A DNA stretch of 64,000 nucleotides from a virus (lineage: Duplodnaviria > Caudoviricetes). Below are positions 11,841 through 52,478 of the stretch, one piece after another (the stretch's first letter is position 1; every line of letters begins with the position of its first letter). Position numbers and translations under genes: made by a program. The notes beneath the pieces are model-generated. The model saw only the letters and a program-made list of their open reading frames with translations, had not been told where the DNA came from and did not search any database. Location of the stretch: the IMG/VR virus record IMGVR_UViG_3300028601_000023, positions 32,001-96,000 of that record; one strand, written 5' to 3'.

Positions 11841-12386
11841 ATGAAAAGTCATCCACTAGTAGTAAACCTTTATGGCGGTCCAGGAACTGGTAAATCGACG
11901 GCCGCCGCTATGATCTATTCTAAACTGAAAATGCAACACCTTGAAGTAGAACTTGTTACTGAGTTTGCTAAAGATCTAACTTATGAAGAAAGATTTCATG
12001 ATCTTGGAAATCAGATCTATGTTTTCGGCGAACAATATCGTAGAATGGATCGTCTATTCGGATCTGTAGATATTATCATTACTGATTCTCCATTATTACT
12101 TTCGTGTATCTATTCAAAGAATCCTCTATATAAGAACTATCTTGATGTTATGATCAGGCGCGTCTCAGAATATGTAGACCGATATGCTATCAATGTTTTA
12201 CTACAACGAGAATCTGACTATAAAGAATCCGGCCGCAAAGAGTCTATGACAGAAGCAGAAGAGATTCATATGATCATTGAAAATATGCTAAAGGGAGAAG
12301 AAATCGACTATATTACTGTTCTAAGCAATCCAGATCATATTGATAGACTTGCTCAGTATATTCTCGATAAAATAAATAGATCATGA
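11841..12386 (+). CDS. P-loop NTPase/kinase (AAA_28, NadR-like)
   Basis: GGPGTGKST, VTEFAKDL and IITDSPLLL. Confidence 0.75.
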   Translation: MKSHPLVVNLYGGPGTGKSTAAAMIYSKLKMQHLEVELVTEFAKDLTYEERFHDLGNQIYVFGEQYRRMDRLFGSVDIIITDSPLLLSCIYSKNPLYKNYLDVMIRRVSEYVDRYAINVLLQRESDYKESGRKESMTEAEEIHMIIENMLKGEEIDYITVLSNPDHIDRLAQYILDKINRS

Positions 12387-13138
12387 AAACATTTATAGAA
12401 TATATTGCCGAAGCTAAAAAGTTCGCTCGTGCAAAAGATCAAGATTTCACAAATGATCCTCAGCTTGTATTGTCCTTTGTAGAATCAGATGAAAAGACTT
12501 ATAAACAGTCATTGGAAAGAAGCCATGATTCTGCTAGTCATGGAATAAAACATTTTGGTGAGTTCGATCCTGAAACTATGCGAGCAATTCTAACTCAGGT
12601 CAAGTCAACAATTCAACAGTTTCTAAAAGATAATCCAGATCACTTCTGTGGGCTTCTCAAAAAACTATCGGGATTTATTACAACTGATCCTAAAGAAGCC
12701 TTTAAACGTGCTAATCTACATATTCTAGCTAACACTCTTGATCTAATCAATGACAAATATATACTTAGAAATAAAATGATTGACATTGAAAAGGATCTGG
12801 TTAAGTATATTCGTATGATTGAGAAAAACTATCTGAGGATTATCAATGACAAACTGAAATCTTCCGTCTCATTAGATAAAGTTTCTGATGATCAGATGCG
12901 TGATGAACTTTTCAAAGCAAAAAGAGTTTCATTTCAAGCATGGCAAGGAACGATTGCTGTTGATATTCTTTTAGACTTTACTGATAATTCAATGATCATT
13001 AGTACACCAGATTATATTAGAACTATGTATCAGTTCGATAGACCGGCGTCTACAAAAGAAGGAACGATTAAGAATTTTTTGTCGAAAGGAATTAAACCCG
13101 AGAACAAACAACTAAATGCTATAATGCAAGGGATCTAA
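12383..13138 (+). CDS. Putative internal head protein with capsid-targeting leader
   Basis: N-terminus MKTFIEYIAE|A. Confidence 0.6.
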   Translation: MKTFIEYIAEAKKFARAKDQDFTNDPQLVLSFVESDEKTYKQSLERSHDSASHGIKHFGEFDPETMRAILTQVKSTIQQFLKDNPDHFCGLLKKLSGFITTDPKEAFKRANLHILANTLDLINDKYILRNKMIDIEKDLVKYIRMIEKNYLRIINDKLKSSVSLDKVSDDQMRDELFKAKRVSFQAWQGTIAVDILLDFTDNSMIISTPDYIRTMYQFDRPASTKEGTIKNFLSKGIKPENKQLNAIMQGI

Positions 13139-15978: not shown

Positions 15979-16194
15979 ATGAAAACTTATACTGAATTTT
16001 TAAATGAGGGCGTAGATCCTGAAGTAAAGAAATTGAAAAAAGGGCAGACTATCAAATACTATGTTAAGTCTGGTACTTCTCATTTGTTTACTGGAACAAT
16101 TATGAAAGTCGGATCAAATTTCTTTATTATCAAAATGCTTCCGACTGGTGACACTACTCATATTCTAAAATCTGACTTGGAGCTTGACAAATGA
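15979..16194 (+). CDS. Small putative internal head protein (SH3-like pattern)
   Basis: Leader MKTYTEFLNE|G. Confidence 0.55.
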   Translation: MKTYTEFLNEGVDPEVKKLKKGQTIKYYVKSGTSHLFTGTIMKVGSNFFIIKMLPTGDTTHILKSDLELDK

Positions 16195-26466: not shown

Positions 26467-26850
26467 ATGAAAATTAGAACCGGCTTTGTTTCCAACAGTT
26501 CCTCAAGCAGTTTCATCTGCCAGATCTGTAATGATGAACGAGAAGGGTGGGACTGGAACAACCACTGTGGAGATAAGCTGACATGTGTTAATGGTCATTG
26601 TTTCTGTCAGAGCCATATAGATAATGATTCACCGACATATAACACAGTTGAGCGCTATCGGAAAAACGATGAACCGATTCCAGCTATTCTTTGTCCGATT
26701 TGTTCTGTCGTAGCAACAGAAGCTCTAAAGTTTAAGAATGTCTTATTTTATCTATTGAAGAAATACGATCTAAAATATGTTGACATTGTGGATGAGATGG
26801 GTATATTGTTCAAAACGAACGAAGAACTTGACCGATATCTGAGGAGCTGA
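26467..26850 (+). CDS. NSSSSS-leader protein 1 (Cys-rich)
   Basis: MKIRTGFVSNSSSSSF followed by CxxC, CxxGHxFC and CPIC. Confidence 0.7.
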   Translation: MKIRTGFVSNSSSSSFICQICNDEREGWDWNNHCGDKLTCVNGHCFCQSHIDNDSPTYNTVERYRKNDEPIPAILCPICSVVATEALKFKNVLFYLLKKYDLKYVDIVDEMGILFKTNEELDRYLRS

Positions 26851-43273: not shown

Positions 43274-43846
43274 ATGAGATACTGCTACATTCATGGATTC
43301 AACTCTGGACCGAAAACGTCTACGCTAGATGCCTTAAGATCTGATCTCGGTGTGGAAGTCTTTGGGTTGTCTTACAAATCTCAGTTCACATACTACCAGA
43401 ACATTGAAAAGCTCTCCAGACAAATCAATGATCTTAGAGAACCGTGCATCTTGATCGGAACATCTCTTGGTGGATTTTATGCCAGTCGACTTCTTATCAA
43501 CTACAATGTTTCTGGTGCTGTCATGTTCAACCCATGCAACTGTCCAGCCGAAGAACTCCAACAATTCATCGGACTGAATACCAACTTTTCAACTGGAGAA
43601 CAGTACGAGCTGACTGATTATATTGTAGACACATATTCCATGGCTACAGAATTAGATCTTCGTAATGTCATGAAACCAAAGTTGGTTTATCTCGCCAACA
43701 ATGATGAATTGATAAATAATACTGAATCAGAATCGTACTGGAATGGATGTGCTCAGATAGAATGGTTTGAAGGAAACCATCGAGTCACAGATTTCAGTCC
43801 GTTCAAAGATGAAATTCTTTCAATGGAGCATCTTATATATCTATGA
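43274..43846 (+). CDS. YqiA/YcfP-like alpha/beta hydrolase
   Basis: YIHGFNS, GTSLGG, FNP, DE and GNH. Confidence 0.88.
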   Translation: MRYCYIHGFNSGPKTSTLDALRSDLGVEVFGLSYKSQFTYYQNIEKLSRQINDLREPCILIGTSLGGFYASRLLINYNVSGAVMFNPCNCPAEELQQFIGLNTNFSTGEQYELTDYIVDTYSMATELDLRNVMKPKLVYLANNDELINNTESESYWNGCAQIEWFEGNHRVTDFSPFKDEILSMEHLIYL

Positions 43847-44382
43847 TAACTTTTTCAGAATTTTTAAATGAGTCTTATGTAAATTTGTTCAAGCCAGATG
43901 AAAAGAAAGTATATGCTGATGAAGTGTTTGCTCTACTACAAAATTCATATAAGAAAGTTGGTGGTCTGAAAGGATCTGGTTTCAATTCACCAGATGATAT
44001 GGTTGCGCGTATTCCGTTCTGGAAGCTTGTACGCAAAAATGATAAGATAGTAGCGGCGGTATTCTATAAGGATTCTGGTGGTAGAAAGTTGGTTGCCCTT
44101 GGAACTGATGGCTCTCCAGAAGGTAAAGCTGCTATAGTTGATTTGATGAAAGCTGAAATTACTAGACAGAGATCTTATTCTGAAGTCTCAGAACCAGTTG
44201 TTTCGTTCATCAAGAAATATGTATTGTCTAATCTAGAACAATATATGATCCCAGCCGATCAAGTTGCAGAGATCCTTGGAAAGGAGATTCGTATTACTGG
44301 AAAGTATACTTATACTCGTGAGATCGGTGGAAACCATCATGAAAAGTTAATGTTTGGAAAACCCGGAGTCAAGTTCTACTAA
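43843..44382 (+). CDS. Putative internal head protein, possible GNAT-like body
   Basis: Leader MITFSEFLNE|S; GATAAATA upstream at about 43711. Confidence 0.55.
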   Translation: MITFSEFLNESYVNLFKPDEKKVYADEVFALLQNSYKKVGGLKGSGFNSPDDMVARIPFWKLVRKNDKIVAAVFYKDSGGRKLVALGTDGSPEGKAAIVDLMKAEITRQRSYSEVSEPVVSFIKKYVLSNLEQYMIPADQVAEILGKEIRITGKYTYTREIGGNHHEKLMFGKPGVKFY

Positions 44383-48795: not shown

Positions 48796-49068
48796 TATCA
48801 TGCTTTACCACCCCACTTACACTGCCGCAATTTCTACTGCTCTTGATTCCGCTGAAGAACTCGGTTATTCCTATGATGAAAATGAATACTTTGATACAAT
48901 AGCAATCGGAACATCTCGTCCAAAAGTTGGCGAGACTTCGAGATTCTCCCTTAGACTTCGTCACAATAGCATGAAAGCCACTGATGCTGATGTATATATT
49001 CATGTACAGGTTTATGGAATGGAATCTGGAATGTACGAACTTAACTTTTATATTCTGTAAAACAATTA

Positions 49069-49111
49069 TTGACATTCTATAAGCTATTAGTTATTCTAAA
49101 CTCAATTGAAC
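49069..49111 (+). promoter_or_regulatory. Early promoter cassette
   Basis: Same consensus. Confidence 0.85.
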
Positions 49112-49694
49112 AACAAATCCCTGGAGGATTAAGATGAACACACGATTTCATTATACTGATTTTTCAGTTTATTCCGACCTCTACAAAGACGTTTATGGAT
49201 TTCGTCCTCGCAGTATTCCTTTCACAACAGTTGCAGAGTATCGAGCCGAGATGACACAACTCAGTGAGATGCTCAAAGATGACATTTCTGTAGAAAAACA
49301 AGAAATAAAATTTGCAGTTGATAGATTCAATCAAATTGTGTCTGATACCATGAATACTTGTAATTGTTCATGGAAAAAGGCTATTGATTTTTTAATGGAT
49401 GCAGAAGACAATGTATATGTTTCTGATGATATGGAATTCTTTCTGTATCATTATGGAATCTATGGGAATCTAGCGTATGAGATTATCAGAAAGTACAAGG
49501 AGGAAAACTAAAATGTTCGCAGATATTTATGTCAGAGACGGATACGGAGATACAATTATCAGACGCAAGCAGGTGAAGCATTGTCCTCATAAAGGTGAAC
49601 GAGTCGAGTTGGATGGTGTATACTATAATATTGTCGATATAGTTCATCGTCTTGATTATGATTGTTTTAACCTTATTTTGGAGAGGAGCTACAA

Positions 49695-50075
49695 ATGAAA
49701 CTCGCTATTGTCGGATCCAGAACGTTTACCGATTATCTGTTTTTAGAATCTACTATAATGACTAGGATAAATAAAACTGTAACTGAGATCGTTTCTGGTG
49801 GAGCTCCTGGTGCTGATAGTCTTGCTGAAGATTTCGCAAAGAAGTTCCGACTGAAAATGAAAGTATTCCCTGCAGATTGGAAAGGGCTTGGAAAGAAAGC
49901 TGGATATCTTCGGAATATTTCTATTATAGAATATTCTGATATTGTAATTGCTTTTTGGGATTTTGTTTCTCCTGGAACAAAATCATCTATTAACCTTGCT
50001 TATAAGATGCACAAGGAATTGCATATCATCGACGTACGAACCAATAAAAATGGAGTTTATAATGAAAACATTTAA
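49695..50075 (+). CDS. YspA/DUF2493 SLOG-family protein
   Basis: AIVGSR, VSGGAPGAD, PADW..GKKAGYLRN and AFWD..SPGT. Confidence 0.85.
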   Translation: MKLAIVGSRTFTDYLFLESTIMTRINKTVTEIVSGGAPGADSLAEDFAKKFRLKMKVFPADWKGLGKKAGYLRNISIIEYSDIVIAFWDFVSPGTKSSINLAYKMHKELHIIDVRTNKNGVYNENI

Positions 50076-50796
50076 GGAATTCATAGAAGAAGCAACTAAG
50101 GAAATGACCCTCAAACAGGTCATGAAGAAAATCAATGACGGCTACTGGGAAGCCGAACAAGATATGAAAGTTGGTCGTCACGCTATCCTTAGAGATATCA
50201 GGACCAAGAAACGGATCACTGTCTATATCAAGGAAGATCTAAACGAAGAATTTAAGACGGGTGATTACGTAAAACACACAAAAAGTGGCGTTGTTGGCAA
50301 GATTGTGAATGTTGCCAGCGATAAGGCCGCCGTCGATGTCAAATGGAATAGTGGAAAAACCACTACAACTGATCCAAAGAAATTGACTAAATTCAATCTA
50401 AAGGAAGATCTAATCGAAGCTGCTCAAGAAAAAGATCTTGATCCTAAGAAGAAGATCGTTGTCAAAGGTGTCAAGGGAGCAAAGTCCAAGCCTTTCGTAA
50501 AGAAATTCAGAAATATGGACGCATACGAAAAGTGGACTGATTCTGATGAGTTTGGTGATTTCGAAGTTCATCAGATTATGAATGAGTCTGATGAAGATAA
50601 TTATATCAATGAAGCTGAGGACGTACACAACTTTATTAGTGACATGATCATGGACTTCGAAAAGAAACTTGAAAGTGTCATTTCAAAGGGTGCTAAGTCG
50701 ATTGATCCAACTGTTCTTAAAGAACTCAAGAAACTTGAAGCTGAATGTGGCAAAGTTCGCAAAGGTAAATTACACGACGTTAGACCTGGGCGTTAA
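50062..50796 (+). CDS. Putative internal head polyprotein
   Basis: MKTFKEFIEE|A leader after a GGAG RBS; internal KEDLNE, KEDLIE, IMNE and YINE sites. Confidence 0.6.
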   Translation: MKTFKEFIEEATKEMTLKQVMKKINDGYWEAEQDMKVGRHAILRDIRTKKRITVYIKEDLNEEFKTGDYVKHTKSGVVGKIVNVASDKAAVDVKWNSGKTTTTDPKKLTKFNLKEDLIEAAQEKDLDPKKKIVVKGVKGAKSKPFVKKFRNMDAYEKWTDSDEFGDFEVHQIMNESDEDNYINEAEDVHNFISDMIMDFEKKLESVISKGAKSIDPTVLKELKKLEAECGKVRKGKLHDVRPGR

Positions 50797-50797
50797 T

Positions 50798-51208
50798 ATG
50801 AAAACGTTCACAGAATATATCAATGAGAGCTTTACAGTTAAAGCTGGCCTTCAGGGAGCTCTCAATGTCAATGGTAAAGACATTGCTAAAGTTGTAAAGC
50901 ATGGAAACAATGTCTTTATTATGATTGACAAAAAAGACGGTGACAAAAATCGTCTTCTGGTTCCAGGTGGAAAAGATATGCTATCATCTGAGATAGTTGA
51001 TTGGTTTACATCTTATCTCAAAAAGAATCCAAAGGTTCTGTCTGAAGATTTAGAAGAAGCGTATACTCTTTCTGGAACTCCCGAAGAAGCAAAGAAAGCG
51101 ATAGATCAATACATGAAAGCTATCCAGGGTCTTGGAATTTCAAAAGAAATTGTCAAGGCTGGTGTAGATGCTATCATGGCAAACTTCAAAAAGGATTGTA
51201 AAAAATGA
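50798..51208 (+). CDS. Putative internal head protein with two modules
   Basis: MKTFTEYINE|S; internal SEDLEE|A. Confidence 0.6.
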   Translation: MKTFTEYINESFTVKAGLQGALNVNGKDIAKVVKHGNNVFIMIDKKDGDKNRLLVPGGKDMLSSEIVDWFTSYLKKNPKVLSEDLEEAYTLSGTPEEAKKAIDQYMKAIQGLGISKEIVKAGVDAIMANFKKDCKK

Positions 51209-51477
51209 AAACATTTAGCGAATATTTGAATGAGTCTATTGATTATACAAAGAAAAAACATCCAGATGGCGGAGAGCTCGCAATTCTCATAAATCCTTTG
51301 AAAAATGATGGCGAAGATGGAAAGTATACAGTAGTGCTTCGTCCGAATAGAAAAAAAGGATCAATAAAAACTCGAAAATCTATAAACATACAATCTTTTA
51401 ATAATCTTCATGATGCTGAAAAGGCAAAAAAAGAATATGCTATAAAATTTGGTTATGGTATAGTAGGATCGAAATAA
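51205..51477 (+). CDS. Putative internal head protein
   Basis: MKTFSEYLNE|S. Confidence 0.6.
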   Translation: MKTFSEYLNESIDYTKKKHPDGGELAILINPLKNDGEDGKYTVVLRPNRKKGSIKTRKSINIQSFNNLHDAEKAKKEYAIKFGYGIVGSK

Positions 51478-51999
51478 ATGATCAATTATTCACTCTTTGT
51501 AGAACTCTGTGATCTAGTAGAAAAGTATAAAGACCGTTATGAGGAATCTAAACGGTCTCATATTGAAAAGGTCATAACAAACGGAAAGAAACTGTTCTAT
51601 TCTGGAATGTTTCCGACACTACCAGATCTGTTTTTGTCTGAACTAGAATCTCATGACAATACAAAGTTCTACTCTGATGAATATTTTGGAGCAGTCCTTC
51701 GGCACGCTGTTAATTTCTGTGGTGCTAAATATCCCTCTAAAGATATAGAAGACTTTGCTAATAGTTCAATTGATACCCATAAGAAATTGAATTCTCATCA
51801 TCCAGAGAGCTTTCTAAACCCAAATGATATGACTCTAATGCATCTTGCTTTAATGATATCTGACTGGGAAGCTGTTGCGTCAGAGGAAAAGAATTCTACT
51901 AGAGAATGGTGGAACAAGGTCAAGGGCAACTATAACTTTGATGATGAACATGTATATATGATTGAACGACTGATTTGGTTTTTTGAGAACTATTCATGA
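51478..51999 (+). CDS. HD-like (DUF5662-type) protein
   Basis: HI..V, SHDNTK, HKKLNSHHPE and MISDW. Confidence 0.65.
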   Translation: MINYSLFVELCDLVEKYKDRYEESKRSHIEKVITNGKKLFYSGMFPTLPDLFLSELESHDNTKFYSDEYFGAVLRHAVNFCGAKYPSKDIEDFANSSIDTHKKLNSHHPESFLNPNDMTLMHLALMISDWEAVASEEKNSTREWWNKVKGNYNFDDEHVYMIERLIWFFENYS

Positions 52000-52418
52000 T
52001 AACCTTTACTACCTTTCTAAATGAGTCTGTTCTAAAAGTAAAGAACAAGTCTCTATCAGTTGTCTCTGCTGACAGGAACAAACTTGTCAGCATCAATATT
52101 AAAAAATTTGATGAAGCTTTCAAGAAGTCTAATATGTATATCGGTCCTGGTGGATCTGGATCTATTCATGGTAGATATAAACGGTTTGGAATATTTGTCT
52201 TTGGTGGAGTAGAAGATATTGGAGGAGGGATCAAGATTCCCTCCAAAGGTGTTGATTCAATTGAAGCTCCACAGGTTTCAGTCAATGACATCGGAGAGAT
52301 CAGCTTTACCAATGGCCGGCATAGATATGCATGGCTTCGAGACAACAAAGCTGATAAGATTTTTGTTTCAATGGATCCGACATCGATCAAGAACGCCAAG
52401 GACTTTGGATACATTTAA
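51996..52418 (+). CDS. Putative internal head protein with a ParB/Srx-like motif
   Basis: MITFTTFLNE|S; FTNGRHRYAWL. Confidence 0.55.
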   Translation: MITFTTFLNESVLKVKNKSLSVVSADRNKLVSINIKKFDEAFKKSNMYIGPGGSGSIHGRYKRFGIFVFGGVEDIGGGIKIPSKGVDSIEAPQVSVNDIGEISFTNGRHRYAWLRDNKADKIFVSMDPTSIKNAKDFGYI

Positions 52419-52456: not shown

Positions 52457-52478
52457 GGGACCTTACGGTCCCTTTTTT
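52457..52478 (+). terminator. Intrinsic terminator
   Basis: GGGACC-TTAC-GGTCCC-TTTTTT. Confidence 0.85.

Follow-up and report, generated by a model that had tools for sequence, protein, structure and literature searches.

Putative polyprotein precursors of internal head proteins, with modules exchanged at short joints, in an uncultured T4-like phage

The uncultured T4-like phage described here is represented by IMG/VR record IMGVR_UViG_3300028601_000023 (Duplodnaviria; Caudoviricetes), a sequence of 141,174 bp with a GC content of 36% and an estimated completeness of about 80%. The window that was analysed is a stretch of 64,000 nucleotides (nt) covering bases 32001-96000 of that record, and plain positions given below refer to it. 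Between nrdD and nrdG, amid nucleotide-metabolism genes, the window holds a cluster of open reading frames (ORFs) that begin with a common ten-residue leader. The first two, of 244 and 136 amino acids (aa), each carry several small modules behind a single leader, separated by short acidic joints. Here we give an account of these two ORFs as putative precursors of internal head proteins, together with their relatives in other phages.

The cargo cluster and its leader

The 244-aa ORF starts with the ATG at 50062, preceded 8 nt upstream by GGAG, and ends with the stop codon at 50794-50796; its start overlaps the 3' end of the preceding SLOG/YAcAr gene. An earlier, sequence-only reading of the window had laid it out as leader, module 1, KEDLNE, module 2, KEDLIE, module 3, IMNE-SDEDNYINE and module 4, and this order was confirmed on the ORF at 50062-50796 (Table 1, where a slash marks a predicted cut). 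The same reading gave the next ORF a like design, MKTFTEYINE/S followed by SEDLEE/A; the design stands, and the start, which the reading implied at 50799, had to be moved to the actual ATG at 50798. Two further leader-tagged ORFs follow, and a strong bidirectional terminator-like hairpin (GGGACC TTAC GGTCCC, then a T-run) at 52457-52472 ends the cluster.

Table 1 Coordinates of the leaders, modules, joints and ORFs of the cargo cluster in the window
Feature	Position	Strand	Remarks
Leader MKTFKEFIEE, 244-aa ORF	50062-50091	+	residues 1-10; predicted cut after E10 (FIEE/A)
Module 1	50092-50229	+	residues 11-56; small alpha/beta domain
Joint 1, KEDLNE	50230-50247	+	residues 57-62; predicted protease site L-N-E/E
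Module 2	50248-50400	+	residues 63-113; possibly SH3-like
Joint 2, KEDLIE	50401-50418	+	residues 114-119; predicted site L-I-E/A
Module 3	50419-50586	+	residues 120-175; beta-beta-alpha-alpha-beta, about 56 aa, terminates in IMNE
Acidic spacer SDEDNYINE	50587-50613	+	residues 176-184; candidate sites M-N-E/S (175) and I-N-E/A (184)
Module 4	50614-50793	+	residues 185-244; helical hairpin
Leader MKTFTEYINE, second ORF	50798-50827	+	second ORF is 136 aa, 50798-51208
Module A, second ORF	50828-51040	+	AlphaFold pLDDT 72-87
Joint SEDLEE, second ORF	51041-51058	+	predicted site L-E-E/A; swap point in alignment
Module B, second ORF	51059-51205	+	helical, low confidence, pLDDT 49-58
Third leader-tagged ORF	51205-51477	+	90 aa, MKTFSEYLNE/S, single module
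Fourth leader-tagged ORF	51996-52418	+	140 aa, MITFTTFLNE/S, ParB_N/PFIN-like motif

Seven ORFs of the genome begin with the pattern M-K/I-T-F/Y-x-E/T-F/Y-I/L-x-E, with starts at 12383, 15979, 43843, 50062, 50798, 51205 and 51996. The first three are scattered among replication genes (12383-13138, 251 aa; 15979-16194, 71 aa; 43843-44382, 179 aa) and are without a family match. Translated from AF158101, the T4 internal proteins IPII and IPIII start with MKTYQEFIAE/A, to which MKTFKEFIEE is identical at 7 of 10 residues. In T4 the first ten residues are the capsid targeting sequence (CTS), which is enough for packaging into the head; its positions 4 and 7 serve targeting and positions 8 and 10 processing, and Asp at position 10 blocks cutting with targeting unaffected (PMC9026906). 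From gene to gene the leaders keep their peptide pattern constant while their codons vary. A more distant phage has homologous cargos behind another leader type (MSIVDKIEAFVNE, MKLIEKIDEYLDE), and its homolog of the third ORF likewise bears that phage's own type. The comparison with T4 supports the prediction that the ten-residue leader is a T4-type CTS.

The phage genome encodes UvsX, a gp41-type helicase, topoisomerase II and NrdD/NrdG, and outside the window it has a head block in T4 order with sheath, tube, portal, protease, scaffold and capsid genes. The sequence-only reading had presupposed a gp21 system, for which the genome gives the context: besides the T4-like leader, a prohead protease at G000:C1:16898-17563 belongs to Peptidase_S77, the gp21 family (E 5.7e-43, above the cut-off), and aligns with T4 gp21 throughout the conserved blocks. 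The gp23-family capsid protein has KDLQE/A as its sole [LIV]xE[AST] site N-terminal to the conserved core, and this site resembles the joints EDLNE, EDLIE and EDLEE. The window ORFs gave no T4_CASP match in Pfam and do not lie in the portal-protease-scaffold-capsid block.

The fourth ORF (51996-52418) contains the motif ..NGRHRYAW.., with a Pfam PFIN match at E 4e-4, which is below the cut-off, and its Atlas neighbours include ParB_N and PFIN clusters; as a lead only, it brings to mind the head-packaged DdrB-ParB of phage P1. Three ORFs at 26467, 26946 and 41272 share another invariant N-terminus, MKIR.GFVSNSSSSSF, unrelated to the capsid-targeting leader.

Joints, modules and their exchange

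The sequence-only reading had pointed to the near-identity of the two KEDLxE joints, and it holds: the DNA at 50230-50248 and 50401-50419 matches at 18 of 19 bases, and in a repeat search the resemblance spans 43 nt (74% identity), whereas the modules of the 244-aa ORF have no mutual similarity. By our own estimate about 6e-5 one-mismatch 19-mers are expected by chance within a 735-nt gene; once the peptides are identical, identical codons are merely moderately unlikely (a few percent). As peptides, K-E-D-L-N-E and K-E-D-L-I-E register with leader positions 5-10 (K-E-F-I-E-E), such that position 8 (L/I) and position 10 (E) are kept and the aromatic residue of position 7 is replaced by Asp. With the T4 data as a guide, the retention of positions 8 and 10 and the loss of the aromatic one make the joints look like cut-only versions of the leader, and we infer that the joints KEDLNE, KEDLIE, YINE and SEDLEE all repeat the second half of the leader in degenerate form, fit for cutting but not for targeting. 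Since [LI]xE is so frequent in these proteins (about 2.6 per 100 residues), the motif alone is uninformative and the signal lies in where the sites are placed.

The modules carry a net charge of +2 to +4, module 3 being near neutral overall with a very basic N-terminal half. Searches of the window ORFs against Pfam and PHROGs gave sub-threshold matches only. The structure of the 244-aa protein was predicted with AlphaFold2 from a 48-sequence alignment. Confidence, expressed as the predicted local distance difference test (pLDDT), was 84-91 for module 1, an alpha/beta domain, 95 for module 3 and 92-95 for module 4. The SH3/KOW-like character proposed for module 2 found support only in sub-threshold Pfam matches (E about 0.01-0.09), and the model, with just two homologs of this module available, left it unfolded at pLDDT <50. 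Joints 1 and 2 fall between predicted domains, and the predicted template modelling score (pTM) of 0.36 indicates beads without a fixed mutual arrangement, in agreement with the independent, linker-bounded domains that the sequence-only reading expected. In the 136-aa ORF, SEDLEE/A lies in a segment of pLDDT <50 that separates two units. Foldseek searches of the AlphaFold model against the PDB and BFVD returned none at E<=0.001, and a search of the ESM Atlas with module 3 returned unnamed viral clusters only.

Architectures of relatives were taken from a word-index search combined with an exhaustive search of cluster representatives; modules foreign to the 244-aa ORF are given as letters. The same modules were found behind a leader in other combinations, as had been anticipated: leader+3+4 in P0003 and P0004, leader+1+4 in P0009, leader+1+3+4 in P0002, and in P0159 the 1+4 pair of P0009 behind a different leader. 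Other chains read 1+X+A+3+Y+4 (P0005), 1+Z+3+W+4 (P0006), 1+A+Z (P0028), 1+V+Z+T (P0058) and 1+A+T (P0063), and P0116 has module 1 in duplicate. The modules of relatives always connect at [LIV]-x-E, and deletions, additions and reorderings fall exactly there (P0001-P0009, P0159); homologs are not always collinear, and the [LIV]xE boundary sites are kept even in very distant ones.

Taken singly, the modules differ in their distribution. Module 1 occurs in 20 other proteins, at times internal or duplicated, and at joint 1 the relatives attach it to 2, 3, 4, A, X, Z or T. Module 2 has two homologs only and is missing from P0002, P0003, P0004 and P0009, and module 4 has nine homologs, with varying partners in front. 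Module A lies inside the polyproteins P0005, P0028 and P0063, behind a KEDLDE-type joint. In the alignment, it is preceded by the leader end EYINE/S in three phages and, in the same columns of three other phages, by joints (EDLDE/G, EDLNE/G and a DLLEE-type); the module that follows it is B, module 3, Z or T, four partners in all.

In P0001 and P0007 a whole second leader, MKSFSEYLEE/A, stands in mid-chain with its own GAGGG ribosome-binding site still upstream. An assembly or frameshift artefact was considered for these fusions and rejected, since P0001 is present on two contigs from two samples, so that its mid-chain leader is not an assembly error, and P0007 has the same internal leader. 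Alignment breakpoints were also scored against the motif: in high-scoring segment pairs of at least 70% identity, 43% of breakpoints lie within 1 residue of [LIVM]xE, versus 8% of random positions, whereas the test on all segment pairs was noisy (about 1.7-fold enrichment) and became sharper when limited to pairs of at least 50-70% identity. Neither megablast nor tblastn, run with the locus and the 244-aa protein as queries on 50,697 phage records, gave any match.

The enzyme-like modules in relatives are HicA and the ParB_N-like lead only. Two related clusters bear the HicA RNase-toxin module. One is the 827-aa module-3 polyprotein P0120 (L011:2700-5183), which combines a HicA toxin domain (E 1.3e-8) with DUF5824, and the second likewise has DUF5824.

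Exchange is visible in the DNA as well. The window and the syntenic contig L005 share about 88-94% identity across nrdD, the SLOG gene, modules 3 and 4, the second ORF and a DUF5662 gene, and between these conserved blocks the cargos differ. Identity to L005 restarts at 50401, where joint 2 opens; in L005 this base aligns within the leader of a leader+3+4 gene. The third ORF shares with L005 the 27-nt leader alone (96%), the cargos being unrelated. With L for leader, the window locus reads [L-1-2-3-4][L-A-B][L-90 aa], that of L005 reads [L-132 aa][L-3-4][L-A-B][L-86 aa][L-110 aa], and that of a further contig, L015, reads [L-1-2-3-L-C][L-A-B][L-90 aa]. That identity breaks and restarts at leaders and joints supports recombination between leader and joint DNA, in line with the suggestion of the sequence-only reading that shared linker DNA could let modules be swapped. 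The turnover of cargos parallels that of T-even internal-protein loci, where the CTS is the sole conserved part (PMC3012670). Immediately upstream of the cluster, at 49060-49673, two small ORFs (125 aa, PHROG 21968; about 62 aa) form an insertion or deletion, being missing in the otherwise about 93% identical L005.

Module 3 and the phage head

The exhaustive search matched 221 representative clusters at E<=0.001, and module 3 accounts for most of them. It was located in 141 of 156 fetched homologs, at any position in proteins of 57-1412 aa. Upstream of it, the sequence is unrelated among these proteins save for the last few residues. Of the internal copies, 125 of 131 have a Glu 1-4 residues ahead; in 108 of these 125, P3 is L, V, I or M, and P1' is A, S or T, again in 108. 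The full motif [LIVM]xE[AST] precedes 97 of the 131 internal copies, which are phylogenetically non-independent, versus about 4% expected from motif density. Stand-alone module 3 starts right past the site (e.g. M-T-S-Y-E-K-D), C-terminal copies end after the last strand, and in most homologs short acidic spacers ending in [IL]-x-E trail the module. The flavour of the joint is lineage-specific and is repeated many times per protein, as EEVELDE/A, ENLDE/ or ETELDE/A.

These joints also bear on a different account, in which a packaged multidomain protein loses its leader and acts as one working chain, the uncut joints being flexible acidic linkers or scars of leader fusions. The homology of joint 2 DNA to the L005 leader is what a fusion scar would leave, P0001 and P0007 carry a fossil leader with its Shine-Dalgarno sequence in mid-protein, and [LIV]xE is common by composition. 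Scars should decay, yet across very distant proteins P3 (L/V/I), P1 (E) and P1' (A/S/T) have stayed, in contrast to P2 and the residues upstream, which vary, and a lineage's own joint type (EEVELDE/A, ENLDE/) recurs within one protein. The retained positions are those that T4 needs for processing, and their conservation across distant lineages argues against linkers or scars that stay uncut, which we accordingly consider unlikely.

Polyproteins with predicted cutting at the joints remain the preferred reading, and module 3 itself is linked to the head. P0016 is a module-3 polyprotein of 715 aa with EEVELDE/A joints, and its gene lies between portal and S77 protease, the slot of T4 genes 67 and 68; the one tblastn match of P0016 in phage records, in Synechococcus phage S-SKS1, was to an unrelated module. 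In the clusters P0121, P0133 and P0075, module 3 is fused N-terminally to a scaffold of gp22 type (best T4_CASP match E 8.6e-62), and the P0121 gene lies between protease and capsid genes. With T4 gp22 as the phmmer query, matches were confined to the scaffold parts of these three proteins. T4 scaffolds are known gp21 substrates (AF158101 annotation; PMC9026906). A kinship of module 3 with gp67 or gp68 was also considered and is not recognisable: phmmer of the two T4 proteins against the homolog set was without a match. We know of no carrier of module 3 among cultured phages.

The phage's own scaffold, in the gp22 position 14.4 kb ahead of the window (G000:C1:17606-19309, 567 aa), has two very basic repeats of about 55 residues (VKHM.AKEKL...KVAKLRRE), each following a poly-acidic stretch with an [LV]-D-E site at its end. 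Possibly the scaffold, too, delivers basic peptides into the head. In another T4-like phage, an intein that shows a faint HNH_3 match splits the Portal_T4 domain encoded by the portal gene (L014:1355-4957, 1200 aa).

Proteins in the gp67/gp68 slot, fusions to gp22-type scaffolds, and basic repeats flanked by [LV]DE sites in the phage's own scaffold would all suit accessories that help to build the prohead core, akin to T4 gp22, gp67 and gp68, and are then degraded, their fragments leaving the head before DNA entry, with no delivery to the host. Scaffold segments, however, have sites throughout, whereas the modules discussed here are compact, conserved and confidently folded with few internal sites. 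Strain turnover at one locus is more like the arms race of T4 internal proteins (PMC3012670), and two clusters have a HicA toxin module. The compactness and conservation of the modules and their arms-race-like turnover argue against a role as core accessories, which we regard as quite improbable.

Proposed maturation and comparison with known systems

We consider it probable that the 244-aa and 136-aa ORFs encode internal head protein precursors, built as polyproteins that are cut and released. The leader would dock the whole precursor into the prohead's scaffolding core, and during head maturation the gp21-family serine protease would cut where the leader and every joint end in Glu. In this way the leader would be removed and the small, mostly basic modules freed in the capsid, where they would remain with the DNA, and the acidic spacers would exit the head. 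With the T4 internal proteins as a model, the freed modules would probably be ejected with the DNA at infection; the HicA modules and the ParB_N/PFIN-like motif fit with enzymes acting in the host. As leaders and joints are alike in their DNA, recombination between them may fuse, delete and swap modules and yield strain-specific cargo sets. More broadly, and with some hesitation, we lean towards viewing the CTS as a construction kit in which the leader is the address and its second half a universal cut joint, with chains of up to about 1400 residues, and module 3 as a widespread, hitherto unnamed internal head domain that reaches the prohead by any of three interchangeable routes: singly behind a leader, within polyproteins or fused to the scaffold.

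Several points weigh against the polyprotein reading. In acidic joints the composition by itself makes [LIV]xE abundant, the 131 module-3 copies do not count as independent cases, and the boundary motif could count as part of the module-3 domain. Module 2 is unfolded in the model, and the module-4 helix begins at the YINE/A site (pLDDT 72-79), a mild concern for the accessibility of that site; the leader is likewise predicted to be helical, and scaffolds are helical too. The modules are without recognisable function, and "effector" is a guess. Of the 5 TATAAATA late-promoter sequences in the window, a number not above chance, none stands immediately ahead of the cluster, which is surrounded by early-type nucleotide-metabolism genes, with sigma-70-like sites in front. 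Synthesis of the T4 internal proteins proceeds from early times onward.

The early-type surroundings and the missing late promoter, together with the conservation of the leader as DNA too, would also be expected if these were not virion proteins at all and the shared N-terminus were a translation-initiation or regulatory cassette, or a recombination handle, on early cytoplasmic multidomain proteins. Against this stand the 7/10 identity of the leader to an experimentally defined T4 CTS, the peptide pattern kept with differing codons, and the other lineage, which changes the leader peptide on all its cargos together. Module 3 moreover occurs in fusions with head scaffolds and in products of head gene blocks, and the site motif equals the predicted maturation site of the capsid protein. 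The CTS match and the scaffold fusions in particular argue against a cytoplasmic role, and we think it very improbable.

Should the polyprotein reading be true, such phages enlarge and reshuffle an injected arsenal at very little sequence cost, and hundreds of unnamed small domains become candidates for early action, e.g. in anti-defence. For annotation, a leader together with [LIV]-x-E joints would mark virion cargo in metagenomic phages, and module 3, through its link to the scaffold, becomes a candidate for a new, conserved constituent of the head interior. The CTS is in use as an engineering tool for loading foreign proteins into capsids, and the chains would offer a natural blueprint for multi-cargo, fixed-ratio packaging in T4-based vectors.

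A literature search found no published account of such polyproteins, and three known systems come closest. The polyvalent proteins of phages and conjugative elements are multi-domain chains proposed to travel with the DNA and to be split into separate units (Iyer et al. 2017, PMC5512222), and the likeness lies in several unrelated domains per chain, here four modules, with homologs of up to 1412 aa. They differ in carrying large enzymatic domains and in their proposed reliance on an embedded zincin-like peptidase (MPTase) domain (PMC5512222), whereas the window ORF has no peptidase, its modules measure 50-80 residues, and cutting would fall to the prohead protease, acting in trans on short linear motifs. 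Pfam scans of the window ORF and 83 homologs gave no peptidase or LPD domain, and the only domains were HicA, EF-hand, DUF5824, DUF6321, T4_CASP, Dockerin_1 and OCRE.

Cuts at multiple sites after Glu, made in the prohead by a gp21-related protease, are familiar from T4 gp22, gp67 and gp68 and from inner-body and ejection proteins of phages phiKZ, 201phi2-1 and SPN3US. The motif is S/A/G-x-E in phiKZ and A-x-E in SPN3US, as compared with [LIV]-x-E at the joints of the window. In the T4 core, phiKZ and SPN3US the extra sites clear propeptides or scaffold, whereas in the window the pieces between sites are predicted folded domains that are shuffled among relatives.

Injection of phage proteins with the DNA to disarm host defences has its textbook example in the T4 internal proteins. 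Like IPI-III and Alt, the window proteins have a ten-residue leader ending in [IL]-x-E and a gp21-family protease in the genome, and like IPI-III their cargos are small, mostly basic and strain-variable, with the leader alone conserved; cargo diversity is typical of the T4-type system (PMC3012670). The cargos themselves are without similarity to IPI-III in Pfam and PHROG, and tblastn against the 50,697 phage records gave no match. T4 internal proteins have one cargo per leader, whereas the window phage places several unrelated cargos behind one leader, as mobile modules set apart by joints that appear to serve cutting only.

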